A stretch of DNA of 32,000 nucleotides from Acaryochloris marina S15 (GTDB taxonomy: Bacteria > Cyanobacteriota > Cyanobacteriia > Thermosynechococcales > Thermosynechococcaceae): NCBI RefSeq assembly GCF_018336915.1, contig NZ_CP064923.1, positions 5,670,001-5,702,000 of the forward strand, in the 5' to 3' direction. A program made the position numbers and the translations under genes. Shown here piece by piece: positions 2,149-28,549 of this stretch (position 1 is the stretch's first letter; every line of letters starts with the position of its first letter). The notes beneath the pieces were generated by a model. That model saw nothing but the letters and a program-made list of their open reading frames with translations. It was not told the origin of the DNA and searched no databases.

Positions 2149-3104
2149 GCTTGGAACTCCTGTTTTAACTGAGTTTCATCTAAATTGCGGCCAATAAACA
2201 CCAGCTCATTCTTGCGGGTTTCATTGGCTTTCCAAGGGCGATCTGCACGGCCATCAAACAGCATGTGGACGCCCTGAAACACAAACCGCTGATCTGCTCC
2301 AGCAATATTCAAAATCCCTTTCATGCGAAAAATATCTGGCCCTCTGGTTTGCAACAGATTTCCTAGCCAACTATTGAGTCGTTCGCCATCGATTTCCCCC
2401 GATTCTGTTAAGGCCACCGACCCCACGGTTTCGTCATGTTCATGGGCATCCTCTCCTAAAAACTCAGGGTCGATCTCCAAGGCTCGGTCCAGATCAAAGG
2501 CACTCACCCCCAAAATAGAGTCCATCTCCACCGATGCATCCTGAGTGCGGTAAATTTTGGCCATGGCATTCATAGAGCGGATTCGATTTTCTAGATCCAC
2601 CAAATCGGCTGCACTGACTAAATCGGTTTTATTGAGTAAAACCACATCCGCAAAAGCGATTTGCTCCTGGGCTTCATCTGCATCCCAATGTTGGTGAATA
2701 TGCTTAGCGTCTACGACCGTCACCACTGCATCCAGATTGAGCTGGGTTTGCATATCTTCATCCACAAAGAAGGTCTGGATCACTGGGGCCGGATCCGCTA
2801 GCCCTGTGGTCTCAATCACCATATGGTCGAACTTATCTCGTCGTCGCATCAGGTTGCCAATAATCCGAATCAGATCGCCCCTTACGGTGCAACAGATACA
2901 GCCATTGTTCATTTCAAAGATTTCTTCATCGGCATCGATCACCAGCTGATTATCAATGCCCACCTCACCAAATTCATTAACAATCACGGCCACTTTTTTG
3001 CCATGTTCATAGGTGAGAATGCGGTTGAGTAATGTTGTTTTCCCCGCTCCCAGATAGCCAGTTAGAACGGTGACGGGGACAGTACCTGTTGCAGCGGTAA
3101 CCAT
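2136..3104 (-). CDS. COG0523 (CobW/YjiA/ZigA/ZagA-type) metallochaperone GTPase
   Basis: Walker A GYLGAGKTTLLN, metal motif GCICCTVRGD, ETTG, NKTD and a CobW_C-like C-terminus. ATG at 3102-3104, 28 nt downstream of a Zur-type box. Confidence 0.9.
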   Translation of the reverse strand: MVTAATGTVPVTVLTGYLGAGKTTLLNRILTYEHGKKVAVIVNEFGEVGIDNQLVIDADEEIFEMNNGCICCTVRGDLIRIIGNLMRRRDKFDHMVIETTGLADPAPVIQTFFVDEDMQTQLNLDAVVTVVDAKHIHQHWDADEAQEQIAFADVVLLNKTDLVSAADLVDLENRIRSMNAMAKIYRTQDASVEMDSILGVSAFDLDRALEIDPEFLGEDAHEHDETVGSVALTESGEIDGERLNSWLGNLLQTRGPDIFRMKGILNIAGADQRFVFQGVHMLFDGRADRPWKANETRKNELVFIGRNLDETQLKQEFQACLV

Positions 3105-3131: not shown

Positions 3132-3146
3132 AGATAACGATTATCA
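3132..3146. promoter_or_regulatory. Zur/Fur-type 7-1-7 operator (AGATAACGATTATCA)
   Basis: Matches 12 of 14 arm positions of TGATAAT-N-ATTATCA. Lies 28 nt upstream of the COG0523 start. Confidence 0.7.
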
Positions 3147-6029: not shown

Positions 6030-6987
6030 TATAGCAAGCGCCATTTTATTCAGGACATAATAAACTAGAGATACTGTTATGTCTTTCAATGGATGCCTAA
6101 AATCTACAGCTACGATTTACGTTGCAAAGTGATCGATGCTATTGAACTTGATGGCATGCCTCCCTCAGAAGCGAGTGACACCTTTCATATCAGTCGTAAC
6201 ACCATTAATCTATGGCAACGTCTCAAAGCAGAAACAGGTGATCTTCATCCCATCCCTAGACAACACCTTGGCCATAGCCACAAAATCACAGACTGGGATA
6301 AGTTTCGAGCTTTTGCTCAAGAACATCGCTATAAAACCCAAGCTCAGATGGCCGAGTTGTGGGAGGGGCAAATCAGTGAGCGTACTATTTCAAGAGCGCT
6401 GAAGAATATTGGATTTACTCGAAAAAAAAGACCTATGGCTACCGCCAACGCGATGAGCACAAACGGGCTGAGTTCGTCCAAAAGTTAACAACAGTAGACC
6501 CAGACGATATCGTCTATGCTGACGAGTCAGGGATGGACAATCGAGATGAGTATGACTATGGCTATGGTCCCAAAGGTGAGCGGGTCTATGCTTTAAAGTC
6601 TGGTAGCAGAAGTGGACGAGTCAATATGATTGCAGCTTTGAGAGGAAAGCAGCTCATGGCCCCGTTCACGATTGAAGGGGCTTGCAATCGCACCGTATTT
6701 GAAATTTGGCTTGAGACTTGTTTGATACCGATGCTCAAACCGGGGCAGAAGTTAGTCATTGATAATGCCACCTTCCATAAGGGAGGGCGAATTGAGCAAC
6801 TGGTAGAAGCCGCAGGATGTGAAGTGTGGTACTTGCCACCCTATTCTCCTGATTTGAATAAGATTGAACGGTCGTGGGCTTGGATTAAAAGTCGAATTAG
6901 ACACCAATTAGAGCACTTCGGTTCACTTAGAGAAGCAATGGAACATGTGTTGTACCTAGCGTCCTAATTAGAGTGGCGACTGCTATA
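6030..6987 (+). mobile_element. ISY100-like IS630/Tc1-mariner family insertion sequence, including flanking TA duplications
   Basis: Imperfect 27-bp terminal inverted repeats at 6030-6056 (TATAGCAAGCGCCATTTTATTCAGGAC) and 6961-6987; the reverse complement TATAGCAGTCGCCACTCTAATTAGGAC matches at 21 of 27 positions. TATA is present at both junctions, consistent with TA target duplication. The element is about 950 bp. Confidence 0.85.
6093..6967 (+). CDS. IS630-family transposase in two frames (HTH part 6093-6488; DDE part, ATG-delimited ORF 6533-6967)
   Basis: A -1 shift on the A8 run at 6422-6429 yields ...KKKTYGYRQRDEHKRAEFVQKLTTVDPDDIVYADESGMDNRDE..., a continuous transposase of about 290 aa. 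Confidence 0.8.
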
Positions 6988-7389: not shown

Positions 7390-7785
7390 TCAGGCTAAAA
7401 CCTCCACTTCAACGCAGTTCTGGCACAGACCAAAGAATTCTAGAGTGTGGTAAAAGACTTGAAATTTCTGTGTTTGTGAGAGTTCTTGTTCTAACTCGTG
7501 GACTGGGCAGTTCATTAATGGCATGGACCTGCCACAGTTTACACAGGTCAGATGATGTCGATGAGCGGAGGCAATACTATAAACCGCTTCACCATTGGGT
7601 AAAGAACGTGTTTGCACTTTGCCACGCTGCTGGAGAACCTTAAGGGCACGGTAAATCGTTGCCAACCCCACTCTTTGTTGCTGCTTTTTAAATTCTTGAT
7701 GCAGATCTTGAGCAGAAAATTCTTGGGGAGTGGAAAAGAGGACTTCCAACACGCGCCGCTGATGAGGGGTTAGTTTCTCTGGCAT
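7390..7785 (-). CDS. zur: Fur-family transcriptional regulator, most likely Zur
   Basis: Winged-helix N-terminus (LTPHQRRVLEVL...GLATIYRALKVLQQRG), HRHHLTCVNCG and CQNC CxxC pairs. It has its own Fur-type box upstream and is surrounded by boxed Zn-homeostasis genes. I prefer the ATG at 7783-7785 over the TTG at 7830. Confidence 0.8.
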   Translation of the reverse strand: MPEKLTPHQRRVLEVLFSTPQEFSAQDLHQEFKKQQQRVGLATIYRALKVLQQRGKVQTRSLPNGEAVYSIASAHRHHLTCVNCGRSMPLMNCPVHELEQELSQTQKFQVFYHTLEFFGLCQNCVEVEVLA

Positions 7786-7849
7786 ACTCAACTCCTTACT
7801 GCACCTGGAACGAGAACCTTTTTTTGACAAATCAAAAGACTATCGGACA

Positions 7850-9759: not shown

Positions 9760-9925
9760 TCAGGCCGACCCACCCACTTCAATACAGTTCTGGCGCAGAT
9801 CCAAGAATTTGTGCGGTAAAAAACTTGCAATTTCTGTATTTGCGTCAGTTTCCGGTCTACCTCGTAGACGAGACAGTTCAGTCCTGGCATGGAGTTGACT
9901 CAGGTCAGAGGATGCCGTTGAGGGG
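9760..9925 (-). pseudogene. Decayed 3' fragment of a zur-like Fur-family gene, forming the tail of the feoB-like ORF
   Basis: Hand alignment to zur 7390 to about 7560. The shared end is ...(F)L(D)L(R)QNC(I)EV...A-TGA. Upstream, YEVDRKLTQIQKLQVFYRT aligns with HELEQELSQTQKFQVFYHT in another frame, with a net 4-nt length difference. SMPGLNCLVYE aligns with SMPLMNCPVHE. PLT-TGA-VN aligns with HLTCVNCGR, showing TGT to TGA plus a 9-nt deletion. Confidence 0.7.
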
Positions 9926-10542
9926 AACACCTCACTGGCGAATGCACCCGAGCACCAGTACCCTCCCCAGGCCAAGATCAAGGAGAAGCAAGTTGCCGCT
10001 ATTGCCTGACGACCCATTAACACCAGTGCAAATCGGAGAGACTGTTCTTTGGCGATCGTCAGGGCCGTGACCAAACAAGGTAACAAGACACCTGCCAGGT
10101 AGACCCCTGTGAGAATTTGCAGCGGTGTGAGAGCGGAGAGAGTTTCAGCTTCAGCAAAGAGCAGCAAACCATCTTTGCGAATAGAGGCCAGGATCATGGG
10201 CAAAGCTGCTTCTGGAGGGAGGCGAAAGATCTGCATCAGGGGATGAATAATGGATGCAGCAGCAGTCAGAAGACTCAGCTCATCTAAAATCGATGCGATC
10301 AAGGTAATGGCCACAAAAATGGGAATGGCATTGGTCAAAAACTGATGAAGCGTACCCTGGGTTTCTCGCCAGATGGTGGCTAAGTGTGGTCTTTCCAAAA
10401 ACGTGCGGTGTTCAATCATCAACGGGTTGTGGAGAGAACGAGCCGACTTAGGGGCAATCAAGCGAGTGTAGATCAGCGTTGTCAAAGTTAGATAACCCAA
10501 GTAGGGAATCACCAAGCTAGGCCAATGGGCTGCACTAAACAC

Positions 10543-11974
10543 CAGCAATTGTAAATTCAAAATTTTGGCAAGCTAGGTTGTAGTCGTTGAGGATGTATTC
10601 ATACACTTGCAGAGCCCCAGACGATGAATGAAGGTGTTCTAAATTTCCCTCTCTTACTGCACTGGCTACATCAGCTCATTGAGCACCTCGATGATCCACG
10701 TCAACCCAGTAATGGCACCAAATTTAGTCTCAAAGATATTGTATTAGGCGCATTTGCTGTCTTCTTTATGCAATGTCCTTCGTTTCTGGAGTACCAACGC
10801 CATGTTCATAGTCGTCATGGTCGTGACAACGCCCAAGCCCTCTTTGAGTTAACAGAACTCCCCACGAGCAACCAAATCAAGAATGTTTTGGACTTGATCG
10901 CATTTCGTCTTCTGTTTCCCATTTTTTATCAAATTTATAGCGTTCTCCTACGACGAGGTTATCTAGAGCAATATAAGGTTCTAGGTGGACACCTGTTGGT
11001 AGGGCTAGACGGCAGCGAGTATTTTTCCTCAAACTGGATTTGTTGCGATCAGTGTTCTACCAAAACCCATCGGGATGGGAGTGTCACCTATACGCACACC
11101 GCCGTGTTGCCCGTCCTCGTTTGTCCGGAAATTGAACATGTCATTTCTCTGGCCCCAGAGTTCATTCGTCCTCAAGATGGTGCGGAGAAACAGGATAGTG
11201 AAACCGCTGCGGCCAAACGGTGGATCAAGGGGCATGCTCAAGGGTTTGACGGAGCCAAGATTACGGTTCTTGGCGATGACCTCTATAGCCGTCAACCGAT
11301 GGTGGAGACTTGTTTAGAGGATGAGTTGAACTTCATTTTTGTCTGTTTGCCCTCCTCCCATCCAGAGCTATATGAATGGGTAGAGTATTTAGAAGGTATT
11401 GGAGATGTTGAGCATCTAGAGACTCGGGGCTGGAACGGTCGCTATCATGAAATTTGTCAGTATCGCTATTACAATCGCATCCCCCTGCGTGAGGAGCTAC
11501 CAGCAGTGATGGTCAACTGGTGCGAAGTCTCTGTTACTCGTGCTGCTGATGGAAAGACTATGTATCACAACGCGTTCATTACTCACCATTTCATCAATGA
11601 CCAAAGTGTGGCCGAGATTGTCAGTGCTGGACGTGCCCGATGGAAAGCGGAGAATGAAGGACACAATGTCCTCAAAACCAAGGGCTATCACTTAGAACAT
11701 AATTTTGGTCATGGTCAGAAGAACCTTGCTGCTGTGCTATTGGTACTCAACCTGTTGGCATTCTTATTTCATACCGTCTTGCACTTGGTGGACTCCACTT
11801 ATCAACGCATGCGAAAGCAACGGGGAACCCGACAAGGCTTTTTTCACGATATTCAGACTTTGACCAAATACTTGCTCTTTGAGAGTTGGGAGCATTTGCT
11901 CCAGTTTATGTTGGATGATCCAGAGCCTCGAATAGCAGCCGATACCTCATGAAATATTGAATTTACAATTGCTG
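10543..11974 (+). mobile_element. IS4-superfamily insertion sequence (1432 bp)
   Basis: Perfect 18-bp terminal inverted repeats: CAGCAATTGTAAATTCAA at 10543-10560 and TTGAATTTACAATTGCTG at 11957-11974. Perfect 9-bp target duplication ACTAAACAC at 10534-10542 and 11975-11983. Confidence 0.9.
10624..11952 (+). CDS. DDE transposase (IS4-type, YREK-like motif)
   Basis: 442 aa and intact. Candidate catalytic residues lie in VGLDGSEYF, VLGDDLYS and ARWKAENEGHNVLK. Confidence 0.85.
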   Translation: MNEGVLNFPLLLHWLHQLIEHLDDPRQPSNGTKFSLKDIVLGAFAVFFMQCPSFLEYQRHVHSRHGRDNAQALFELTELPTSNQIKNVLDLIAFRLLFPIFYQIYSVLLRRGYLEQYKVLGGHLLVGLDGSEYFSSNWICCDQCSTKTHRDGSVTYTHTAVLPVLVCPEIEHVISLAPEFIRPQDGAEKQDSETAAAKRWIKGHAQGFDGAKITVLGDDLYSRQPMVETCLEDELNFIFVCLPSSHPELYEWVEYLEGIGDVEHLETRGWNGRYHEICQYRYYNRIPLREELPAVMVNWCEVSVTRAADGKTMYHNAFITHHFINDQSVAEIVSAGRARWKAENEGHNVLKTKGYHLEHNFGHGQKNLAAVLLVLNLLAFLFHTVLHLVDSTYQRMRKQRGTRQGFFHDIQTLTKYLLFESWEHLLQFMLDDPEPRIAADTS

Positions 11975-13125
11975 ACTAAACACCGCCAGCGTGGCACCGA
12001 ATTGGTATGAACAGGCGGAACCAAAGGCAATCGCCGAAATACAAGTTTTTCGAGCACAACTAGAACAGGCACGAGTACTGATCACTGCTGGCACATTACA
12101 GCCAAATCCCATCACGACCCGCACCAGATCCCGTCCAGATAACCCCAAGGGACGCAACAGTGGATGTAGGGCAACCGTGATCCGCTCTACCAAGCCGCTA
12201 GCCTTGTAAGTTCCCAAACATACGGCATAGAGAATGACAGTCGGCACAGCCCAAACCCATAGCAACGGTCCCATCGTCAGTAAGCCATAACGTCCAATCA
12301 GCATTTCTCTCGGCAGAGACAGAGGTATATCAGCCAGAACATCTACCAGGGGTTTGACCAGCGATTGCACAAGGGGATCAGCAACGGCCGCAAAGCTATT
12401 GGCAAACCCAACCGCAAGTAGGGTAGGCAGTAGTAGGAGAATGAGCGCCACCAGCCACCCAAACTGTGGATGTTCTAACACCGTTGGTCGAGGTTCAATC
12501 CGCCATCCAGCCGGAATGGGTTGCCGTTGTGGAAATACAGCCGGATCTTGCAAAGCTGCCCGAATTTCGTGATGCTGTCCTAGGGTCAGATGTCTCGCAT
12601 CAATGGGGATAAACGCCAGATTAGAGGTCTGTTCCCAACATTGGACAATCTCCTGGGTAAACCTAGCGTGAGACACTTTGTCCCAAAACGTGATCACAAC
12701 AATGCCCCGCTTCCCCACTACCAAGGGCCATAAATCCATCAAATCTTCATCCACATGGGTTGCTTTGATCACCAACAACACAGTGTCATGGGTTTTTAAT
12801 TGCGCCAGTGCAGCTTGCGTGGTGACCCGATCCGATCGGTACAAAATACCGGGGGTATCCACAACAGTCAGTCCGTCTCCGACATAGGTGTCACAGGCAA
12901 TCGTAGAGCCACGGAAGTTAATGCTGTAAGGCAAACATCCCGTGAGCGAAGCAACCAGTTGAGATTTGCCCGTATTTTCTTTACCGATCACGACGATAGA
13001 GCGCTGGGCGGGTGGGATAAGTAGGGGCATAGCGGATCATTAACAGAATCGGACAAGATAACGTTGCTCTCTCCCCAGTAGTAGAGCCACTGGCGAAATC
13101 AGCATTTGTTTACATGGCAAAGCCT

Positions 13126-17982: not shown

Positions 17983-18915
17983 CTAAGAAGGCATAGGCCT
18001 TTGCAAGAGCCACTCCATCACCCGTTGCTTATGGGAGTCAATGCTGAAGACTCGCACTGCGTTACCTTGATATTCCGTCATTCTGCGATTGAGACTGTTC
18101 AGAACTTGCTGTGGGTTTGTCCCCTCAAGGGGTGGACAGCTTTGCCAAGCCCCCACTTTGAAATGTCTGGCATCGGCCTGTTCAATGCCAATTTGATTCC
18201 CCAACCGAAGTTGCCCCAGAATCTGTTCCAGCACTTCAGCGCTCAGCTGTTCTTGAAGCTTTTCATTCTGAGGTCGAGCTATCTCAGAGCGATGGCCATT
18301 GTTCAACGGTGCAGCACAGGCAATATCGTCTGCACAGCGATAGCCCGCCAGTAAAGCTCGATTGATCTCCACCACATGATGAGAAAAACGATGATCAGTT
18401 GTCTTGGCATCCGGTAGTCGGTCGGCCTCGCTTTGGTGGGTAATCACAACCCCTGATCCAACATATTTTCCAGGTGGAATTTCCACATCCTGGATAAGCG
18501 CATGCATCATCACAATACAGCGGTGCCCTACCTTGGAATTAAACACCGTTGATCGAAAGCCGATGAAACAATCATCGCCAATATAAGCAGGCCCGTGAAT
18601 CAAAGCCATATGGGTAATGCAGGTATGTTCACCAATCCAGACCGAGTAAGACTCACCATCATCTCCGGTGACTCGGCCTCGTTCTAAGCCATGTATGACC
18701 ACACCATCCTGAATATTAGTATTTGCACCAATGTAAAAGGGCATACCCTCATCTGCTCGAATGGACGTGCCAGGTGCGATTAAGACTTGGTGTCCCAGAC
18801 GAACATCTCCGATCAAGCTCGTTGAGGAATGCACATAGGCCGACTCACTAATTTGAGGTTGATCCAGCCCTTGATCCCAAGGGGTCGGAGGTGAAGGTTG
18901 CTGACGTAGAGGCAT
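17983..18915 (-). CDS. CcmM-like protein: gamma-carbonic-anhydrase domain plus a single RbcS-like SSUL module
   Basis: The N-terminal 200 aa or so is near-consensus CcmM gamma-CA ([74 protein letters not shown]). The C-terminus is [37 protein letters not shown]...[22 protein letters not shown], which is one SSUL repeat. Confidence 0.8.
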
Positions 18916-18952
18916 CTTTAATACTCCATTGGTTTAAAGTCGACTGGGCCCA

Positions 18953-19438
18953 TCAAAGCTGCGTCGGATTGGGGGCATCCCCATAGACCCGTTGGGGGTC
19001 AAAGGTTTTGGCCGCTTCTGTAAAGGTCAAGGCAATGGGAGAGGGGCCGTCCACTGCTTCCGTCCCCAAAGGAATTTGACGATAAAAACAAGACCGATAC
19101 CCTACATGGCAACTAGCTCCAGACCCCGCAACGGTCACCCGCATCCACAGGCAGTCTTGATCATCATCAATCAGCAATTGTTGAACGTATTGAATCAAGC
19201 CACTGGTGGCACCTTTGTGCCAGAGGGTCTGACGGCTGCGGCTGTAGTAATGGGCCTCTCCAGTTTCAATTGTTTTCATCAAAGCTGTCTGATTCATATA
19301 GGCATGCATGAGCAGTTCACCTGTTTGGGCATCAGTGGTCACCACAGGCATTAAACCGTCTTGATCAAACTTGGGGGAAAGCAGCGATCCTTCTTCGACT
19401 GCTTCGACAGAGGTACGCTGAGCGAATGAGAGAGTCAT
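18953..19438 (-). CDS. hisI: Phosphoribosyl-AMP cyclohydrolase
   Basis: [37 protein letters not shown]...[11 protein letters not shown]...[13 protein letters not shown] is the HisI signature with its Cys ligands. The ATG at 19436-19438 has GAGG upstream. Confidence 0.85.
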
Positions 19439-19484
19439 GGTAAACCTCAGAGACAACGATGGGTAAAACAGCTACTAGCTATTC

Positions 19485-20030
19485 CTAGATGTTTTGTTCG
19501 GGCATACCCGAAGAGTGGTGATCGACAATCAGCCAGCGATCGCCAATTTTGCGATAGACAAAGGTAAATCTCGCCATCAGCTCTGAAGGTCGCCCCTCTT
19601 TGACCACTGCAAAGGCATAGAGGCCAGAATTAACAGCCAGATCACAAAAAACCTGGATATTTTGCTCGACGATACGACCATCCGGCTTCAGGGCCAGGAA
19701 GCCTTGGAAGTAATCTTCAATTTCAGCAGGGGTATGTCGAACTCGGTTGGAAACCGTGGGCACCAGAATGGCATCAGGGGCATAGGTTTTGACGACTTCA
19801 CTGGGTTGACCTGTTTGCAGGGATTGATCCCATTGCTCAAACAAATCGGCAATCTCTGCGGGGGCCACGGTTGGGCAGCGAGTTTCAGCGAGAACGGGTG
19901 TACAAACAAAACTCAATAGTAAGCAGCAGCCCAAAAGCATTCCAATCACGTTCTTGATTCTGAGAAACGTTCTCTGCTGGGGCTGAGCTGAGCTGCAGGG
20001 CTGAGCGGGTTGATAGGCAGCGTTCATCAT
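19485..20030 (-). CDS. Exported NTF2-like SgcJ/EcaC (CaMKII-AD) family protein, candidate iota-class carbonic anhydrase
   Basis: Signal-peptide-like IGMLLGCCLLLSFVCTPVLAETR, then an NTF2-like domain ending in DRWLIVDHHSSGMP. The ATG-ATG at 20025-20030 has AGGA upstream and lies 10 nt after the thrS stop. Confidence 0.6.
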   Translation of the reverse strand: MMNAAYQPAQPCSSAQPQQRTFLRIKNVIGMLLGCCLLLSFVCTPVLAETRCPTVAPAEIADLFEQWDQSLQTGQPSEVVKTYAPDAILVPTVSNRVRHTPAEIEDYFQGFLALKPDGRIVEQNIQVFCDLAVNSGLYAFAVVKEGRPSELMARFTFVYRKIGDRWLIVDHHSSGMPEQNI

Positions 20031-20040
20031 TTTTCCTAAT

Positions 20041-21891
20041 CTAAATTTGTTGTTTGGCATCAATGGCGGTCTGCATTTTGTCGCACAGTTCTGGGAGCTT
20101 CAATAGCTCCTGCTCTTCTGAATGCCGAGTGCGAATAGTGAGGGTCTGGGTTTCAACTTCTTTTTTTCCCACCACAGCAACCACCGGAATTTTGTCTAGG
20201 GCTGACTGACGAATTTGTTTTCCTAAACGCTCTCCCGTCTGATCGACTTCAGCCCGGAAGCCCCTTTGCTGAAGCTGCTCTAAAACCTCAAGGGCATAGG
20301 GTCGCTGGGCATCACTGACGACGAGTAGCCGCATCTGCACGGGTGCTAGCCACAGGGGGAAATCCCCCGCATAATTCTCGATCAAAATGCCGAAGAATCG
20401 CTCCAAAGACCCAAAAATGGCCCGATGAATCATAATCGGGCGCTGCCGCGATCCATCTGCGGCGACATATTCCATCTTGAAGCGCTCAGGCAAATTAAAG
20501 TCCACCTGAATCGTGGAGCATTGCCACAGCCGTCCAATGGCATCCCGTATCTTCAGATCAATCTTGGGTCCATAAAAGGCACCCCCGCCTTCATCCGTGA
20601 GGTAATCCCAACCTTTACGTTCTAGGGCTGTGCGCAAGGCCTGGGTAGCCAAATCCCAAATATCATCGCTGCCCACTGATTTACCAGGCCGGGTTGAGAG
20701 ATTAACCTCATACTCTCGAAAGCCAAAGTCCGACAAAATCGTCTCGGTTAAGTTCAGAACCGCCAAAATCTCGTCGGCTACCTGATCTGGTAGACAAAAA
20801 ATATGGGCATCGTCTTGGGTAAAGCCCCGAACCCGCATCAGTCCATGTAGAGTCCCGGAGCGTTCGTACCGATAGACCGTCCCTAACTCCGCCCACCGCA
20901 GGGGAAACTCTCGATAGGAGTGGAGATCGTGCTGATAGGTGAGGACATGAAAGGGACAATTCATGGGCTTGATCTGATAGGCCTGGTTCTCCACATCCAT
21001 TTGATCAAACATGCTGTCCCGATAAAATTCGAAATGACCCGAGGTTTTCCACAGATCCAGATTGGCCATATGGGGGGTATAGAGCAACTCATACCCCCCC
21101 TGGATGTGCGCTTGTCGCCAGTACGCTTCAATGACCTGGCGAATTCGAGCCCCCCGTGGATGCCAAAAGACCAGTCCTCCCCCTGCGTTGTCTTCAATAC
21201 TAAAAAGCTTGAGGGTCTTGCCCAAAAGACGGTGGTCCCGACGCTGGGCTTCTTCTTTTTGGTGCAGGTACACTTTTAACTGCTTCGGTGTTTCCCAGGC
21301 GGTTCCATAGATCCGCTGCAGTTGCGCCTGGGCTTCATCGCCACGCCAGTAGGCTCCGGCGACGCTTTCGAGCCTAAAAGCCTTAGGATTTAGCTCCCCC
21401 GTACTGTTGAGATGGGGACCTGAGCACAGATCCCACCAAAATTCATTGGGGGCCACTGGCAACGGCTCAATCAGTGAGGCTTCCGCTTCGGGATGTTGAG
21501 TTCGTCCCGTGTCTGGACTGCCAATAAAATAACGGGTAATGGTTTCCCCCGCAGGAATCTGGGCCAATATTTCTAACTTATAGGGTTCTTGTAACTGTTC
21601 CAGTTCAGCCTGCATCTGATCGCGATCCACTTGTTCGCAGATGATGGGCAACTTGGCTTTGATAATCCGCCGCATCTGAGTGGATATGGCATCTAAATCG
21701 TCTGGTGTAAATGCCTGAGCACGGTCAAAGTCATAGTAGAAACCTGTCTCAGTCGTGGGACCAATCGTCACCTTTGTTTCAGGAAACAGATGCTGCACCG
21801 CCATGGCCATCACATGGGCACAGGTGTGGCGGAGTCGCTGCAATTGTTCGGCGGAATTGGGCGCTGATAGCGTAGAAGAAGCAGTAGACAT
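20041..21891 (-). CDS. thrS: Threonyl-tRNA synthetase (no N-terminal TGS domain), Zur-box-associated paralogue type
   Basis: Editing-domain HxxxH ([12 protein letters not shown]). Class II core with Zn-ligand motifs [16 protein letters not shown] and [14 protein letters not shown]-terminal anticodon-binding domain. Confidence 0.95.
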
Positions 21892-21930
21892 AGAGGCTTG
21901 CAGAGAAGGGCGAAGGGTTGCTTAAGCATA

Positions 21931-21945
21931 TGATAATGATTATCA
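21931..21945. promoter_or_regulatory. Zur/Fur-type box, perfect TGATAATGATTATCA, in the divergent thrS/folE intergenic region
   Basis: Lies 40 nt from the thrS ATG and 89 nt from the folE ATG. It overlaps AT-rich, -10-like hexamers on both strands. Confidence 0.85.
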
Positions 21946-22033
21946 TTATATTTGTTAAGACCTAGTTTGCTTTTGGATTGAAGCCGACTGGATCTCGAAG
22001 TGACCCTTATCCCTTTCCGCGTTAGGAGTTTCT

Positions 22034-22669
22034 ATGACCTTGCCTTCCATAACGACCTTCAATCCTGAAGAGATCGTCACTGAATCTCAGTCCATTGTCT
22101 CGGAGGCCGAAATGCAGGCTGCCGTCCGTACGTTGTTGCTGGGTATGGGTGAAGATCCCGATCGAGAAGGACTCCGAGATACCCCTAAGCGAGTGGTTAA
22201 ATCCTTAAAATTTCTGTCTTCGGGTTATCAGCAGTCCCTAGATGAATTGCTGAATGGGGCTGTCTTCTCCGAAGACCTGGATGAAATGGTCTTGGTGCGC
22301 GATATTGACCTCTTTAGTTCCTGCGAACATCATATCTTGCCCATTATTGGCAAAGCCCATGTGGCTTATATTCCCAACGGCAAAGTGATTGGCCTATCGA
22401 AAATTGCCCGCATCTGTGAGATGTATGCTCGGCGACTCCAGGTACAAGAACGATTAACGGCACAAATTGCCGATGCGTTGCAGGGCCTACTGAAGCCCCA
22501 AGGAGTCGCTGTGGTCGTAGAGGCAAGCCATATGTGCATGGTCATGCGAGGGGTACAAAAACCTGGCTCTTGGACCTCGACAAGCTCCATGCGAGGCGTG
22601 TTTTCCAGTGATGCCCGCACCCGCCAAGAGTTTTTTAACCTGATCGCCCACTCACCTGCAATTCGGTAG
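22034..22669 (+). CDS. folE: GTP cyclohydrolase I, canonical FolE (type IA)
   Basis: [20 protein letters not shown] and [10 protein letters not shown] motifs. TAGGAG RBS at 22024-22029. Confidence 0.95.
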
Positions 22670-22692
22670 TTACGGCTTAGGCCATCAGCACC

Positions 22693-23667
22693 ATGCTTCC
22701 CATCCCTGGACTATTTGAATATCGCCTGCCCGTTACCCTGATAACGGGCTTTTTGGGGAGTGGTAAAACCACTCTGCTGAACCATCTCATGCGCAATCTG
22801 GGGGATCGACGAGCGGCCGTTTTTGTCAATGAATTCGGAGCGATTGACATTGATAGCCAAATTCTAGTGACCGTGGATGAAGATCTAGTGGCTTTGTCTA
22901 ACGGCTGTATCTGTTGCCAAATTAGGGATGATTTTCTCATGGCCTTCCGACGGGTCTTGGCTTATAACCAAATGCAAACGTCCGCCGGGAAAAAGGGGCT
23001 AGATGCCATTTTCTTGGAAACATCCGGGGTGGCCGATCCCTATCCGCTGATGCTCACTTTTAGAGCCACCGAACTCTTTAGCCTGACCCGTTTAGATGCG
23101 ATCCTAACCGTTGTGGATGCTGAGGCCTTTACTGCTGAACATTTCCAAAGTCAGGCTGCTCTTGCCCAAATTCAACATGGCGACATTATCCTGCTGAATA
23201 AAACCGATCTAGTCGATCAAGAACAGCTCAGGTCCGTAGAAACTGAGATTCAGCGCCTGAAGCCCCAGGCCAAGATGCTACCCATGACCTATGGCCAAGT
23301 TCCTCTGTCTAGCGTTTTGGATGTGGATCTCTATTCTGAGGAAATGGCAGCCGGCCCACCCTCAGAAACCCAGCATCTCAAGGATGATGGGTTTGTAGCG
23401 GTACCCTTTGAAAGTGATCGCCCCTTTAACTTGAGAAAATTCCAGCAATTTCTGGACTATCAGCTACCCTCAGAAGTCTTTCGGGCCAAGGGGGTTCTCT
23501 GGTTTGACGAAAGTCCCCGCAGACATCTGTTTCAACTGAGTGGTAAACGGAGCCAACTGCAGGATGAGTCGTGGTTGGACTCCCCTAAGAACCAACTGGT
23601 GTGCATTGGCCGCAACTTGGATTCAGAACAATTACAACATCAGCTCCATCAGTGTCTTGCCCCATGA
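22693..23667 (+). CDS. COG0523 metallochaperone GTPase
   Basis: GFLGSGKTTLLNHL, GCICCQIRDD, ETSG, NKTD and a CobW_C-like end. Starts 23 nt after folE. Confidence 0.9.
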   Translation: MLPIPGLFEYRLPVTLITGFLGSGKTTLLNHLMRNLGDRRAAVFVNEFGAIDIDSQILVTVDEDLVALSNGCICCQIRDDFLMAFRRVLAYNQMQTSAGKKGLDAIFLETSGVADPYPLMLTFRATELFSLTRLDAILTVVDAEAFTAEHFQSQAALAQIQHGDIILLNKTDLVDQEQLRSVETEIQRLKPQAKMLPMTYGQVPLSSVLDVDLYSEEMAAGPPSETQHLKDDGFVAVPFESDRPFNLRKFQQFLDYQLPSEVFRAKGVLWFDESPRRHLFQLSGKRSQLQDESWLDSPKNQLVCIGRNLDSEQLQHQLHQCLAP

Positions 23668-24422
23668 GTAGTCCTGCTGTTATTGCCGTCGCTGGCCCCT
23701 GTGGCAGTGGTAAAACCACCTGGATCAACCAGTCTTTAAAAGATGCAACGGCTCCACTCTCATATTTCTATTCGGGACTAGGCAGGAACCCCGTTGACCT
23801 GATGCGGATTGGTTATTGTTTCCCCTCGGTACAGGTCATGTCTGATCTCCCGGCTCCCCAGGTGTTCTCCTCTCTACCAGATGGAGCAATTATCTATGTG
23901 GAGCTAGACTTTCCTGAACTCTTAAAACCTCTTCTGCCGAAGGTGCGTTTCTGTCATCAAGTGGCTGTAATTCCGCCTCATCTGCAAGATTCTGCCTGGC
24001 ATCAATGGGCAGATCAGATTATTCCGGGGAACGATATTGCCATTCCAGATGCGGCCAAGCCACCTGAGCGATGGCACGCCCCTTTGCAAGGTCAAGTCTT
24101 TGATCCTGCCAGCTTAGAAGTGGTGCTGACGGAACTGATGGAAGGCGCCTATGGTGATATCCATCGAGTAAAGGGCATCTTTGAGATGCCCGATGGCCAA
24201 GCCCTTTACATTGATTTTGTGGCAGGGCTGGAGGGGGTTGAATATACCGAACTCAGTATTCCCCGTTGGCTAGAGGGACGCCCCGATCGCTGGAGTGGCA
24301 TGGAAGTGATGGGCAACAACCTCCAGCCAGAAATCATCTCCCAAACCCTATTGGATGGATGCCTAACCGATGAAGTCATTGCCTATTATCAGCAGCAATA
24401 CCAAGCCTTAAGCCCCGTTTAA
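23664..24422 (+). CDS. Divergent COG0523-like P-loop protein lacking the CxCC metal motif
   Basis: The ATG at 23664 overlaps the upstream stop (ATGA). The P-loop AGPCGSGKTTWINQ is retained. There is no GCxCC and no NKxD. The CobW_C-like segment IHRVKGIFEMPDGQALYIDFVAG is retained. Confidence 0.65.
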   Translation: MSSPAVIAVAGPCGSGKTTWINQSLKDATAPLSYFYSGLGRNPVDLMRIGYCFPSVQVMSDLPAPQVFSSLPDGAIIYVELDFPELLKPLLPKVRFCHQVAVIPPHLQDSAWHQWADQIIPGNDIAIPDAAKPPERWHAPLQGQVFDPASLEVVLTELMEGAYGDIHRVKGIFEMPDGQALYIDFVAGLEGVEYTELSIPRWLEGRPDRWSGMEVMGNNLQPEIISQTLLDGCLTDEVIAYYQQQYQALSPV

Positions 24423-24436
24423 AAGGTTAGTTCAGT

Positions 24437-25249
24437 ATGAAACTTGCGGTGATTTCCTGTATTCATGGCAATTATGAGGCCCTGAATGCCGTGCTCTCTG
24501 ATATTGATCGCCATAAAACCGACCAGATTTACTGTTTGGGTGATCTGGTGGGTTACGGTCCCCATCCCAATGCCGTAGTCGAGATGATTCGTTCCCTCGA
24601 TATTCCCACCTGTCAGGGCTGCTGGGATGAAGACATTGTCGAAGGTCTCAATGCCTGTGAATGTAGCTATCCTTCTCTGTTAGCAGAGAAACGGGGCAGG
24701 CAGGCCCATGAATGGACAAATCAAGTCATCCATCCAGAGGTGAGAGACTATCTGGCCCGTTTACCCATGACCCTACAGACTGAGAATCTGGCCTTTGTCC
24801 ACGGTAGCCCCAACAGTCAGCATGAATATCTACTGCCCAGCATGGATGGATTTGCCGCCCTAGAGCGGGTGGTCTCCACCGGAGCCGATGTCTTATTCTG
24901 TGGCCATACCCATGTTCCCTATGTACGGGAGTTAGAAGATGGCAACCTCTCCGTGCGTGTTCACCAACCTGGACAAGACGACCAGCAGCACCAGTTCACA
25001 ACGTCCCTGAAGCGAATTATCAATGCCGGATCCGTGGGAGAACCCCGCCACGGACGTCCCCATGCAACCTACGTTCTCTATGACACGGATACGGCCCAGG
25101 TGACGCTCCAGGAGGTGCCCTATGACTACGAGAAGACTTGTACAGCCATTATTGATAAGGGTTTGCCGCCCATTTTTGCCTGGCGCTTGGCCCGAGGAAT
25201 GGAGTTTGCAGAGCGAGCCGATGATCCCAGTCATGTGTGTCAGCGGTAG
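24437..25249 (+). CDS. Metallophosphoesterase (Metallophos_2 / MJ0936-like) with Cys substitutions at two metal-ligand positions
   Basis: ISCIHGN (usual ISDIHGN), LGDLVGYGP, QGCWDE (usual GNYDE/GNHD), HGSP, GHTHVP and GSVGEPRHG. Confidence 0.8.
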   Translation: MKLAVISCIHGNYEALNAVLSDIDRHKTDQIYCLGDLVGYGPHPNAVVEMIRSLDIPTCQGCWDEDIVEGLNACECSYPSLLAEKRGRQAHEWTNQVIHPEVRDYLARLPMTLQTENLAFVHGSPNSQHEYLLPSMDGFAALERVVSTGADVLFCGHTHVPYVRELEDGNLSVRVHQPGQDDQQHQFTTSLKRIINAGSVGEPRHGRPHATYVLYDTDTAQVTLQEVPYDYEKTCTAIIDKGLPPIFAWRLARGMEFAERADDPSHVCQR

Positions 25250-25274
25250 CTGGCTCCAATTCAGGAGGTAAAGA

Positions 25275-26012
25275 ATGGAACAGTGGGCTATTTTAAGCGG
25301 GATAGAAGGTAATCTTAGTGCCTATGAGGCCGTACTGGCAGATATCCGCCGACAGCGCTTTCCAGTGTCGGATTTGTATGTCTTAGGCGATTGTGTTGGC
25401 CTCAAGGGAGACAACAAGGCCGTGATCCGGCGGCTACAGTCTCCGGGGGCTGGAGAATTAGAGCCCCAAATTTGTATTGGCTGGTGGGAGGAGCAGTGCT
25501 TTAATTTATACGGGTTGGGCGGCTTGCCCGATGCGCCTGAACTGATCGAACAAGAGGGGGCTGATGCTGTTCAGCATCTTTGGGAATCGGTGTCCCGGGA
25601 ATCAGTTCAGTGGATGCGAACGCTCCACTTTGGGTTTCACGAATTGGATTGCCTGCTGATTCACGGTAGTACAGCAGGTTATGCGGATGAACTCACACCG
25701 GACACGCCCGCGATGCAACTGTGCGATCGCATAATTCAAGCCGATGCCAATCATCTCTTCTGCGGTCGCTCAGGACTCGCTTTTGAATGTTGGATTGAAC
25801 CCAAGGATCTACGCTCCACGGTCATAACCCTAGAGGGCACCCAGACTACACCGATGCAAAGTCATACGCCCCGGCGCGTCATCGGTGTCGGCAATGTTGG
25901 ACGTACATGGGGACAGGCCACCTATACCCTTTACAATCCCGCCAACAATCAAATCACCTTTAAGACCGTGAAATACACCAAGGCCAAAGGCTTTGCCTTG
26001 CAGCACTCATAA
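25275..26012 (+). CDS. Degenerate metallophosphoesterase paralogue (probable pseudoenzyme)
   Basis: Same fold pattern, but the motifs are SGIEGN (D and H lost), LGDCVG, GWWEE (N/H/D lost), IHGS and CGRSG (GHTH lost). Confidence 0.65.
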   Translation: MEQWAILSGIEGNLSAYEAVLADIRRQRFPVSDLYVLGDCVGLKGDNKAVIRRLQSPGAGELEPQICIGWWEEQCFNLYGLGGLPDAPELIEQEGADAVQHLWESVSRESVQWMRTLHFGFHELDCLLIHGSTAGYADELTPDTPAMQLCDRIIQADANHLFCGRSGLAFECWIEPKDLRSTVITLEGTQTTPMQSHTPRRVIGVGNVGRTWGQATYTLYNPANNQITFKTVKYTKAKGFALQHS

Positions 26013-26063: not shown

Positions 26064-27160
26064 TACAGATAAGCACTTAGCTAAAATTAATTACATAATC
26101 ATCGCCATAGGTTTTCAAAACTCTTTCCACATATTCGACCAAAGATGACCACCCCCAGTAGGCACTCATTTCAATCCACTGATATTTCATGAATTGCCAC
26201 AGACGCTCAATCAAATTTAGATGGGGAGAATAGCTTGGTAACTCAAACAAGGTAATTCCCCGTTCGGCCCACTCTGCCTTCATCTCATAGATTGCTTGGC
26301 TCGTATGGATAGGGGCTTGATCCATCACAATGACGGTGGGCAACTCCACGTCAGTAAAGAAGGTATCAATGCAATGACTGACAACCTCACTGGTGATGGT
26401 CTGTTCTGATGTATAAGCATGTAGCCCTTGTCGTCGACTCAAAAACCCCAGAACATTCAAGCGTTTACTTGAACGAGTCGGTATTTCCAGATAAGTCCCT
26501 ATGGGTTGCCATCCGTAGGGAATACAGGGGACTAACGAAAAACCACTCTCATCCATAAAGAATAGGTGGATGTCTCCCTTCTCTTCTTGTTTCTTGAGAT
26601 GTTCTAACTGCTGTTTTTTTCGAGGTAGTCGGCATATAAAGGCTGGCCTGATGTCCCTTGGCGAAAGCGATGCCAGCTCATATCCATCTGCTTCAAGACG
26701 CGTTTAACGGTGGCCTTTGACACGCGCACTGACCACTGCTGTTCAATCTGAGCTAGCACCCGATTGAGTTGGATGGGAGATGCCTGAGTCCACTCATAAA
26801 TCTGCTGTTGTTGGTCGGGATTAAACATCGGTTTTCGACCTCGGCCTGGGCGATTATAGAGTCCTGCAAAACCACGGTTATTCCAAGCCTTAAGCCAGTT
26901 GTACACGGTTTTAGGACTCACACTAAAAAGGGAGGCTAAGGTGTAGGGACTCACACCCTGGGCAGACAAAATGAGGCAATGGGCGCGTTGTCTGACCTGA
27001 TGATGGCGACTACAGCGATAAATCCGATGCAATAAGCGTAAGCTTTCGGTGGAGATAGGACGGACAATTGACATCAAATCAATGGATGTAAAAAAGAGGA
27101 CTCAGGTAGTTTACAACCTGGAAATTCTATGTAATTAATTTTGTCCATCTGCTTAATTTA
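26064..27160 (-). mobile_element. IS630-family insertion sequence (about 1.1 kb)
   Basis: Inverted terminal repeats: CAGATAAGCACTTAGCTAAAATTAATTACATA at 26066-26097 versus TATGTAATTAATTTTGTCCATCTGCTTAATT at 27128-27158. The inner 15 bp are perfect and the outer part is imperfect. TA is present at both junctions (26064-26065 and 27159-27160). Confidence 0.8.
26077..27077 (-). CDS. IS630-family transposase in two frames (HTH part 27077-26604, DDE part 26556-26077)
   Basis: A -1 shift on the A7 run (plus-strand T7 at 26614-26620) gives ...LEKKQQLEHLKKQEEKGDIHLFFMDESGFSLV..., a continuous transposase. Confidence 0.8.
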
Positions 27161-27163
27161 GAG

Positions 27164-28549
27164 GGCTCTCCGGTAATTAGCGTGGTGACACCCTACATAT
27201 AGTGTTTATTCCTTAGTCATCCCTATGGAATGATCTGAGGAGGTACTTCAGAACGAGAGTGTCATGGATAACTCAATTCGCATTCCCCTCAACCTTCCCG
27301 ATGTTCAAGTTCTAGAGCTATCGAAGACGGAACGAGGGGATTGGCTGATCAAAATTGAGAGTACTCTGCAAGGAACAACCTGCCACAAATGTGGACATGA
27401 GATTACTGACCTTCACTGCCATGATCAGGCTCTTCGAATTCGTCACTTGCCATTGTTCGAAGTACCAGTGTATTTAGAAATTCGGCCCAAGCGCTATCGA
27501 TGCGGGTATTGCGATGACCATCCCACAACAACTCAACGCTTAGAATGGCATGAACCTCGTAGTCCCAATACCAAAGCTTATGAGCATTGGCTTCTGCGTA
27601 TCCTGATCAACTCAACGGTCTCAGATGTTGCTAGGAAACTAGGCGTTAGTGAGGATGTCGTCAGTGGCACCATTGATCGCTGGATTGCCTGTCAAGTTGA
27701 CTGGAGCGAATATTTAGACCTCCAAGTCATCGGGATTGATGAGATTTCTCTGAAAAGAGGCCACCGTGATTTTGTAGTTTTGATCACGATTCCTACCACA
27801 GGCGGAGTAGACATATTGGCAGTTCTGGCCGACCGCAAACAACAGACCGTTGCAAATTTTCTTCAATCGATTCCCCTTCATTTACGCCAAACCATTGAGC
27901 GGGTTTGTACTGATATGTATCAAGGATTTGTCAGTGCAGTCCGTGAACAACTCCCTCAAACAAAAATTGTCATTGACCGCTTTCATGTGGCCAAAGCCTA
28001 TCGTAATGGTGCCGATACAGTTCGTAAACGGGAGGTCAAACGTCTACGCCAAGAACTCCCTAAGCAAGACTATGACAGTATCAAAGGTGCGATGTGGGCC
28101 TTTCGAAAACGGCCTGAGAATCTCCAGGAGTCAGAACAACAGTTGCTTGAGCGAGTGTTTGCTTATTCTCCTGAGATGAAGCAGGCCTACAAACTCCGAG
28201 AGGAATTGACACAGATATTTGAGGGTAGGTACACCAAAAACGGAGCTAAATGTGCCATCCGGGCTTGGTGTAAACGAGTCCTCAAAAGTGACATCAAGGA
28301 TTTTGAGAGTTTCCTGACCACTGTCAACAATTGGATGGATGAGATGACCAACTATTTTCTGGAGGGATGGACCAGTGGCTTTGTCGAAGGATTTAACAAC
28401 CGAGTTAAGGTCCTAAAAAGACGATGCTACGGTATTTTCGATATTGAAAGGCTCTTCCAAAGAATTTCGCTTGACCTCAATGGGTATCAGACTTTTGCCT
28501 TGACCTAAACACTATATCTAGCGGCTATCACGCTAATTCCCAGAGAGCC
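27164..28549 (+). mobile_element. ISL3-family insertion sequence (1386 bp)
   Basis: Imperfect terminal inverted repeats of about 42 bp (GGCTCTCCGGTAATTAGCGTG... at 27164 and ...CACGCTAATTCCCAGAGAGCC ending at 28549). Perfect 8-bp target duplication ATTTAGAG at 27156-27163 and 28550-28557. Confidence 0.9.
27264..28508 (+). CDS. ISL3-family transposase
   Basis: Zn-finger CHKCGH...CGYC, IGIDEISLKRGHRDFVVLIT and DRFHVAK. 414 aa and intact. Confidence 0.9.
   Translation: MDNSIRIPLNLPDVQVLELSKTERGDWLIKIESTLQGTTCHKCGHEITDLHCHDQALRIRHLPLFEVPVYLEIRPKRYRCGYCDDHPTTTQRLEWHEPRSPNTKAYEHWLLRILINSTVSDVARKLGVSEDVVSGTIDRWIACQVDWSEYLDLQVIGIDEISLKRGHRDFVVLITIPTTGGVDILAVLADRKQQTVANFLQSIPLHLRQTIERVCTDMYQGFVSAVREQLPQTKIVIDRFHVAKAYRNGADTVRKREVKRLRQELPKQDYDSIKGAMWAFRKRPENLQESEQQLLERVFAYSPEMKQAYKLREELTQIFEGRYTKNGAKCAIRAWCKRVLKSDIKDFESFLTTVNNWMDEMTNYFLEGWTSGFVEGFNNRVKVLKRRCYGIFDIERLFQRISLDLNGYQTFALT

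Follow-up and report, generated by a model that had tools for sequence, protein, structure and literature searches.

One question raised by a stretch of the Acaryochloris marina S15 genome (32,000 nucleotides, positions 5,670,001 to 5,702,000 of contig NZ_CP064923.1, hereafter the window) is why an operon fronted by a binding site for the zinc regulator Zur should encode a metallophosphoesterase with a cysteine in each of its two metal sites, in the company of a paralogue stripped of catalytic motifs and of a COG0523 derivative without the motif that defines COG0523. The five genes concerned (g1 to g5) were described in an initial annotation, made from the sequence, as a Zur operon that pairs an enzyme with a pseudoenzyme twice. 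Here we report that the conserved unit is the trio g3-g4-g5, in which g3 and g4 are translationally coupled, and that folE, COG0523 and thrS genes are its movable neighbours. The cysteine substitutions are, judging from the sequences compared, the hallmark of the entire g4 family and not a local oddity. The explanation that we favour, with moderate confidence, is that the trio provides a Zur-derepressed, thiolate-tuned binuclear phosphoesterase, together with a dead partner subunit and a dedicated nucleoside triphosphatase (NTPase) accessory factor. The features needed to follow the argument are these, in coordinates of the window:

21930-21946, Zur box, in the 142-nucleotide divergent intergenic region between thrS and folE

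22034-22669, plus strand, g1, folE (GTP cyclohydrolase I, FolE type IA; PF01227, TIGR00063)

22693-23667, plus strand, g2, canonical COG0523 G3E GTPase (Pfam cobW and CobW_C, motifs)

23664-24422, plus strand, g3, COG0523-derived P-loop protein with a short G domain and a CobW_C-like domain

24437-25249, plus strand, g4, metallophosphoesterase with Cys8 (motif I) and Cys62 (motif III); Metallophos_2

25275-26012, plus strand, g5, conserved pseudo-metallophosphoesterase, paralogue of g4 (hhalign to the g4 family)

17983-21891, minus strand, divergent operon (thrS paralogue, SnoaL/CaMKII_AD-like gene, hisI and a short CcmM-like gamma-carbonic-anhydrase gene), sharing the same Zur box

The peculiarity of g4 lies in its metal sites. 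The protein matches Metallophos_2 in Pfam (E 1.3e-23, 84.2 bits against a cut-off of 27) and has sub-threshold matches alone in NCBIfam, and a profile alignment to the canonical structure 3rqz puts Cys8 in the place of the motif-I Asp and Cys62 in that of the motif-III Asn, which bears out the claim of the initial annotation that both metal sites carry a Cys with GD, HGS and GHTH kept. Motif I reads CIH instead of DxH, and motif III reads GCWDE instead of GNH(D/E), with Asn changed to Cys62 and His to Trp63 (the counterparts in 3rqz are SDVHAN and GNHD). Motifs II (GDLVGYG), IV (HGS) and V (GHTH) are both kept and invariant, so that g4 departs from the calcineurin-like pattern at motifs I and III and conforms to it at II, IV and V. 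Of the seven canonical ligands g4 retains five, together with the GxPR (GxPRHG) substrate motif, and the four His ligands, the bridging Asp and GxPRHG are under strong constraint. Additional Cys and His residues occur in a CxC loop (Cys74, Cys76) and in a C-terminal tail (His266, Cys268); in a 16-sequence alignment of g4 proteins, Cys8, 33, 62, 74, 76, 155, 235 and 268 and His266 are all invariant. The closest solved structures in a fold search, with which g4 shares the subfamily architecture, are 3rqz (Sphaerobacter), SapH/Spr1479 (a diadenosine tetraphosphate (Ap4A) hydrolase/phosphodiesterase) and PF1291/PH1004 (1nnw, 2gju); the Cys pair, CxC loop and Cys tail of g4 are missing from all of them.

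The initial annotation had considered that the substitutions might prove typical of the whole subfamily regardless of context. Typical they are, since SC[IV]H and GCWD are found in all 120 closest homologues of g4 (73-96% identity) and 5 divergent full-length representatives also have the Cys residues; context-free they are not, since the g4 family is confined to Zur or metal-homeostasis neighbourhoods, which ties the substitution to a metal context. In the larger subfamily, an exhaustive HMMER search gave 133 full-length representatives (numbered with P), 124 of them with the canonical Asp/Asn and seven scored as Cys/Cys: g4 itself, the close representative P0356, the chimeric-looking P0385 and the divergent P0359, P0361, P0362 and P0365 (39-48% identity). 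These divergent four share the CxC loop and a C-terminal extension that ends in CxC (H-x-C in g4), an extension that is absent from canonical relatives. The nearest canonical Asp/Asn relatives, from Clostridia and Desulforudis, have the CxC loop and lack the tail, the Cys-bearing tail being specific to the Cys-Cys clades. A Rosetta-stone search for proteins joining g4 and g3-like domains returned unrelated fusions only (to an ECF, or extracytoplasmic function, sigma factor and to DUF2703). Among the subfamily relatives P0447 and P0415, fusion partners are an ECF sigma-70 domain, in a protein where Cys occupies motif I only, and DUF2703. Canonical relatives encoded on plasmids often adjoin arsenic-resistance genes.

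How constant is the company that g4 keeps? A scan of one genome per species gave at least 588 loci with g4 relatives (scan loci are numbered with L), and the best 80, all cyanobacterial, were analysed. Near g4, these contain g3 in 78 cases, g5 in 73, a COG0523 gene in 33, folE in 23 and thrS in 20. In 64 of 73 loci the stop codon of g3 and the start codon of g4 share an ATGA, g4 and g5 are separated by a median of 47 nucleotides, and the exact five-gene order occurs in about 8 of the 80 loci, in close relatives and a few other lineages only. For cyanobacterial-type loci, an independent scan of metagenomes gave an upstream g3 in 48 of 49 and a downstream g5 in 43 of 45. The module persists in a GC-rich (guanine-plus-cytosine-rich) lineage where g3 is 30% identical, as a COG0523-g3-g4-g5 string that has znuCBA, a FUR gene and another COG0523-WD40 pair next to it. 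On plasmid A of Trichormus variabilis, the trio follows thrS, DUF1636, COG0523, methyltransferase and hisI genes and lies opposite hemB and znuA, and in other genomes it neighbours zur, znuABC, hemB, hisI and thrS paralogues. The five-gene unit proposed in the initial annotation is thus an arrangement that does recur, but whose constant part is g3-g4-g5. The same counts qualify the idea of two enzyme-pseudoenzyme pairs, since g4 and g5 are true paralogues but g2 and g3 are adjacent in a minority of loci, the constant partner of g3 being g4.

Some variation inside the module was also observed. In one clade, a class I S-adenosylmethionine-dependent methyltransferase gene (L040, 8816-9517; L081, 5577-6287) is inserted between g4 and g5, with a spacing of about 740 nucleotides in L039, L040, L047, L053 and L058. 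Such a gene is also present in the Trichormus cluster, so that the module may sometimes include it as an additional member. The trio is plasmid-borne in several strains (Trichormus plasmid A, Picosynechococcus plasmids).

The constant upstream partner, g3, was claimed in the initial annotation to be a COG0523 derivative with a P-loop and a CobW_C-like end but neither CxCC nor NKxD, and this description is upheld by the family counts and by the fold. Its sole Pfam match is a weak one to CobW_C (PF07683, E 5.8e-5, 23.3 bits against a cut-off of 22), with no match to the Pfam cobW domain; there is no match to the NCBIfam MRF model either, and NCBIfam has no family for g3. Across 178 sequences of the g3 family, the P-loop (GPCGSGKTT in g3) is present in 173, C.CC in none and [NT]KxD in two, and about 25 positions are invariant among orthologues. 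The AlphaFold2 model has a pLDDT (predicted local distance difference test) of 88.6, and its top three Foldseek matches in the PDB are all YjiA, a COG0523 protein (E 7e-8 to 1e-7). The fold search was needed to see this kinship, since hhalign of the g3 family against g2 aligned the P-loop alone (probability 42%). The CobW_C domain and the two-domain fold of COG0523 are therefore present in g3, and the CxCC and NKxD motifs are absent. Given that the CxCC motif defines COG0523 and is present in all members (Haas et al. 2009, PMC2770081), g3 is better called a derivative of COG0523 than a member.

The downstream partner, g5, has no match in Pfam or NCBIfam, and its homology to the g4 family is seen by hhalign (probability 99.7%, E 4e-27). 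This agrees with its description as a dead paralogue of g4, with the correction that three of the five metallophosphoesterase motifs are destroyed and not four: motifs I, III and V have become SGIEGN, GWWEEQ and CGRSG, and GD and HGS alone remain. Across 21 to 72 orthologues, these replacements do not vary.

The two genes in front of the trio are of known type. A FolE protein is encoded by g1 (PF01227, E 1e-75; TIGR00063, 268 bits against a cut-off of 181.6), in which the CEHH and HMC motifs can be read; these we take to be zinc ligands, by analogy with E. coli FolE. That g2 is a canonical COG0523 protein, as first annotated, is clear from Pfam (cobW, E 9e-53; CobW_C, E 9e-22) and from the presence of every COG0523 feature, namely Walker A (GFLGSGKTT), CxCC in switch I (GCICC), ExxG (ETSG), NKxD (NKTD) and the CobW_C domain; it scores under the NCBIfam equivalog cut-offs of ZigA, CobW and YjiA.

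The five genes run head to tail on the plus strand with intergenic distances of 23, -4, 14 and 25 nucleotides. Calling of open reading frames offers a longer GTG start for g3 at 23601; the start at 23664, the ATG of an ATGA that overlaps the g2 stop, is backed by the N-termini of orthologues. The Zur box, 88 nucleotides from the folE start, is ATGATAATGATTATCAT, a perfect 8-1-8 palindrome that includes TGATAATGATTATCA and has the arms ATGATAAT-G-ATTATCAT; its 7-1-7 core, TGATAATNATTATCA, stands as a perfect copy at 21931-21945, and at two mismatches or fewer the core has 6 matches in the window against 0.11 expected. A promoter scan places a sigma-70-like promoter of the minus strand over the box, and neither promoter-like nor terminator-like signals inside the g1-g5 operon rise above chance. 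The layout, spacers, palindrome and quoted motifs of the initial annotation were all recovered by reading the open reading frames and the sequence, and its single operon behind one Zur box agrees with the scan for internal signals. The nearest matches to the window come from Acaryochloris, with a collinear locus in A. marina MBIC11017, where g4 is 94% identical, and a g3 that is 99% identical in Acaryochloris sp. 'Moss Beach'.

Zur boxes also accompany the trio elsewhere. The 80 loci (1.0 Mb) hold 136 Zur-box-like sites against about 3 in Markov-1 simulations (about 47-fold enrichment), with at least one site in 69 of the 80, and a box lies within 400 nucleotides upstream of g3 in 30 of 76 loci. 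Picosynechococcus PCC 73109 has a perfect box where g3 and a flavin adenine dinucleotide (FAD) gene diverge. In PCC 7002, g4 is gone altogether, together with the 3' half of g3 and the 5' half of g5; compared with PCC 73109 (L082), plasmid pAQ7 of PCC 7002 (L092) has about 1.6 kb swapped for an unrelated open reading frame. Expression of the g3 remnant of PCC 7002 (G0131) and of G0132, its divergent neighbour, rises in a zur mutant and on treatment with the chelator TPEN (N,N,N',N'-tetrakis(2-pyridylmethyl)ethylenediamine; PMC4628125). Zur control of the trio is thus a prediction from the boxes, to which expression data from this one orthologous promoter lend support.

Zur operons that combine COG0523 with low-zinc paralogues are already known. 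The Zur operon all4725-all4721 of Anabaena sp. PCC 7120 comprises, as summarised in the literature, hemB2, thrS2, the COG0523 gene All4722 and folE (PMC6103462, PMC4787780). It resembles the present locus in Zur, in the 7-1-7 type of box, in the thrS paralogue, COG0523 gene and zinc-type folE paralogue, and in its logic of low-zinc paralogues plus chaperone; the difference, as far as that summary goes, is that the phosphoesterase pair and the CxCC-less GTPase are not listed there. In B. subtilis, COG0523 protein ZagA and FolE are likewise co-regulated by Zur, the idea being that ZagA is a chaperone that supports FolE, its specific client, under zinc limitation, whereas here FolE and COG0523 are movable and the constant chaperone-like partner of g4 is the CxCC-less g3. 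The trio is an additional, undiscussed module, and seems to add a new component to the low-zinc response. Neither the trio, the double-Cys site nor the FeoB-like link considered below was found as a named family in the searchable literature, Pfam or NCBIfam; the sole mention found in the literature is the PCC 7002 'phosphoesterase' G0129, and the supplements of the ZepA paper gave no match.

What, then, would the trio do? The initial annotation offered a heteromeric GTPase that loads a re-tuned phosphoesterase, an alarmone hydrolase or a pseudoenzyme scaffold, and any of the three may be right. On the explanation that we favour, Zur would leave the palindrome overlapping the divergent promoters when zinc is scarce, and both operons would be transcribed. 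The rightward one would supply extra zinc-type FolE, the COG0523 metallochaperone GTPase g2 and the three-gene module. In that module, g4 would remain a binuclear metallophosphoesterase, with a thiolate in place of one hard ligand at each metal site and with the CxC loop and the Cys/His tail near the metals. These thiolates may re-tune metal choice or affinity under zinc starvation, either towards tighter zinc binding or towards iron, as in PhoD. As a structural or regulatory partner subunit, g5 would form a hetero-oligomer with g4. Translational coupling would keep g3 in fixed proportion to g4, and g3 may act as a nucleotide-dependent docking or maturation factor without metal cargo, working with a true COG0523 protein such as g2.

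PhoD, which has a purple-acid-phosphatase-like fold, is an active phosphodiesterase in which an Asp-to-Cys change gives a thiolate ligand at the Fe3+ site, and both Cys and Asp subfamilies exist (PMC4223295); the change is at the first metal site, as for Cys8. It differs in being secreted, in using Fe3+ and two Ca2+ with a Tyr ligand and in having one Cys only, whereas g4 is cytoplasmic, has two Cys plus the CxC loop and the Cys tail, and keeps all the His ligands. In Anabaena, the Zur-regulated threonyl-tRNA synthetase paralogue (ThrRS T2) still requires zinc for activity and is active at low zinc (PMC4787780). PhoD and T2 together make a change of metal use by thiolates a reasonable proposal. 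For g5, the likeness is to Vps29 and to the B subunits of DNA polymerases, inactive subunits with a metallophosphoesterase fold; g5 too has this fold in conserved form without catalytic ligands and is presumably a scaffold. Unlike these, g5 is a recent paralogue encoded beside an active-looking partner. The operon of Fe-type nitrile hydratase encodes an alpha subunit with a Cys-ligated metal, a beta subunit and an activator of the COG0523 family. A resemblance may be seen in its plan (a thiolate-metal catalytic subunit, a non-metal partner and a G3E accessory gene), the folds being unrelated. The nitrile hydratase activator needs its CxCC (PMC2770081), a motif that g3 has lost. Mycobacterial Rv0106 (MRF) is a degenerate COG0523 relative of the Zur regulon that lacks canonical motifs and is a recruiting factor and not a metal carrier; it is without Walker A (PMC2770081), which g3 keeps, and it is linked to ribosome hibernation, whereas g3 is coupled to a phosphoesterase.

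Several points weigh against this explanation. The motif-III His is lost (GNH to GCW), so that hydrolase activity of g4 is not assured, and the g4 model is of low confidence precisely at the Cys-rich loop and tail. A search for a canonical housekeeping sister of g4 in cyanobacteria identified none; with the nearest canonical relatives in Clostridia and Desulforudis, replacement of a paralogue is not demonstrable. The contacts between g4 and g5 and between g3 and g4 are something that we infer from gene order and coupling alone, and the role of g3 for g4 and the identity of the metal are likewise inferred. In PCC 7002 the fragments downstream of g3 (G0129, G0130) are not induced (PMC4628125), which we attribute to the disruption of the module there by deletion and replacement. 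Additionally, the divergent relatives of g4 lack g3 and g5 and are paired with permeases, which indicates metal trafficking as much as catalysis.

This divergent Cys-Cys clade (L090, L091, L093-L095, L100, L102-L108, L110) is 37-49% identical to g4 and spans GC contents of 0.39-0.71. Of 26 contigs, 14 have a gene for a FeoB-like or Gate-domain permease immediately next to the phosphoesterase gene, in either gene order, and COG0523, WD40, FUR and TonB-receptor genes lie around; given this setting of FeoB-like permeases, COG0523 and FUR, the Cys-Cys variant appears to track metal homeostasis. The first alternative starts from here: g4 would be no enzyme but a high-affinity acceptor or relay in metal trafficking, whose Cys/His-rich site (Cys8, Cys62, CxC loop, C-terminal Cys/His tail and four His) would take metal from the Zur-regulated FeoB-like permease or from COG0523, with g3 and g5 as adaptors. 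A FeoB-like gene is also present in the island around the operon and adjoins thrS-g3-g4-g5 in L003 and L024, and the restriction of the C-terminal Cys tail to Cys-Cys clades would suit such a role. Nevertheless, the four His, the bridging Asp and GxPRHG are constrained beyond the needs of a binding site, and metal buffers or stores are usually induced by metal excess rather than by starvation; we regard this alternative as possible though unlikely.

A bolder view, speculative and slightly harder still to credit, is that g4 and its permease-linked cousins contain a previously unseen, thiolate-rich multinuclear metal centre that is the hub of a widespread zinc-starvation pathway. In this putative centre the metals would be ligated by Cys8 and Cys62, by the CxC loop and the Cys tail at the C-terminus, and by four His and one Asp. 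As a cytoplasmic hub it might take metal from a FeoB-like importer and pass it on, or might free metal from an imported phosphoester carrier, and in cyanobacteria it would be assembled by the CxCC-less G3E-derived NTPase g3 and the pseudo-subunit g5.

Two alternatives give g4 a definite substrate, and to both we attach low probability. Being the commonest enzyme neighbour, on the same strand in 22 of its 23 loci and often directly upstream of g3 (or of g5, in L068, L078 and L079), folE invites the proposal that g4 and g5 dephosphorylate the FolE product (7,8-dihydroneopterin triphosphate or monophosphate) and so sustain folate and pterin synthesis at low zinc. Yet 57 of the 80 loci have no folE within 8 kb, thrS, hemB and hisI are equally typical neighbours from the Zur regulon, the divergent clade has no folE link, and no sequence feature indicates a pterin substrate. 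The other candidate, already named in the initial annotation, is an alarmone or dinucleotide such as Ap4A or ZTP (5-amino-4-imidazolecarboxamide riboside 5'-triphosphate), whose hydrolysis by g4 would tune a signal of zinc or folate stress. SapH, the nearest characterised fold relative, is an Ap4A hydrolase/phosphodiesterase, the JGI annotation puts the g4 family in the ApaH/PP2A group, and the COG0523 protein ZagA of B. subtilis is reportedly activated by ZTP. This has to be set against an identity of 20-21% to SapH, a score of 22.9 bits with the NCBIfam ApaH model (cut-off 176) and an Rfam scan of the whole window with no ZTP or other riboswitch, and no match at all; the Cys ligands and the permease link would be left unexplained as well.

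Very improbable, in our judgement, is a redox switch in which Cys8 and Cys62, from opposite sides of the active site, would gate an ordinary phosphoesterase by means of a disulfide or persulfide. Both Cys do replace ligands of adjacent metals, and the island contains an FAD-dependent oxidoreductase and a DUF1636 protein, but the four His and the bridging Asp remain, which argues for retained metal binding and against a metal-free thiol switch, and Zur control also indicates a metal. Finally, a chance neighbourhood in decay, with g5 a dying duplicate and g3 a degraded, functionless COG0523, might be read from the missing Pfam match of g5, the marginal one of g3 and the partial deletion in PCC 7002, but is effectively refuted by the conservation data, namely the invariance of the replaced g5 motifs, the invariant positions and confident fold of g3 and the persistence of both genes with g4 across cyanobacteria, down to 30% identity.

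The operon is part of a larger whole, since the entire window is a zinc-response island with a FUR-family gene that has its own box, a COG0523-WD40 pair, the FAD oxidoreductase, DUF1636 and FeoB-like genes. Zur-box-like palindromes lie at 3132, 7850, 14592, 17781, 21931 and 31170, three of the six being perfect; the one 20 nucleotides upstream of the FUR-family gene (7390-7830, minus strand) suggests autoregulation. At 1111-3104 (minus strand) a COG0523 gene overlaps a WD40 beta-propeller gene, a pair that recurs in distant zinc islands (L084, L100, L103) with COG0523 proteins 64-67% identical across them. The FeoB-like gene appears to be split, with the G domain and first Gate part at 11963-13030 and the C-terminal Gate part at 9760-10560 (both minus strand), on either side of an open reading frame of 442 residues without a Pfam match (10624-11952, plus strand); it is intact in L003 and L024, next to a Pyr_redox_3 gene. 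The short CcmM-like gene (17983-18915, minus strand, 310 residues) joins a gamma-carbonic-anhydrase hexapeptide domain to one RbcS-like domain and, lying in the Zur-controlled thrS-hisI operon, may encode a low-zinc variant of the carboxysomal carbonic anhydrase. Transposase genes of the IS630 type (helix-turn-helix plus DDE_3, two copies) and of ISL3, at 26077-28508 and 6093-6967, are placed at the 3' flank of the operon and within the island, which suggests that the island is mobile or rearranging.

It is chiefly through Zur regulons that the re-allocation of zinc by bacteria can be studied, and zinc use by cyanobacteria bears on the marine carbon and phosphorus cycles. The module described here is present in several hundred cyanobacterial genomes, beside zur, znuABC, COG0523 genes and known low-zinc paralogues. 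If our explanation is right, g4 would show how, in an enzyme superfamily that has been studied very thoroughly, metal ligands are naturally re-tuned from Asp and Asn to Cys, and would be a candidate for a defined client of COG0523-type proteins, whose clients are largely unknown, and g3 would be the second COG0523 derivative, after the mycobacterial MRF, to have dispensed with metal binding. The association of the Cys-Cys enzyme with the FeoB-like permease, for its part, may indicate an unrecognised route of metal uptake or mobilisation.

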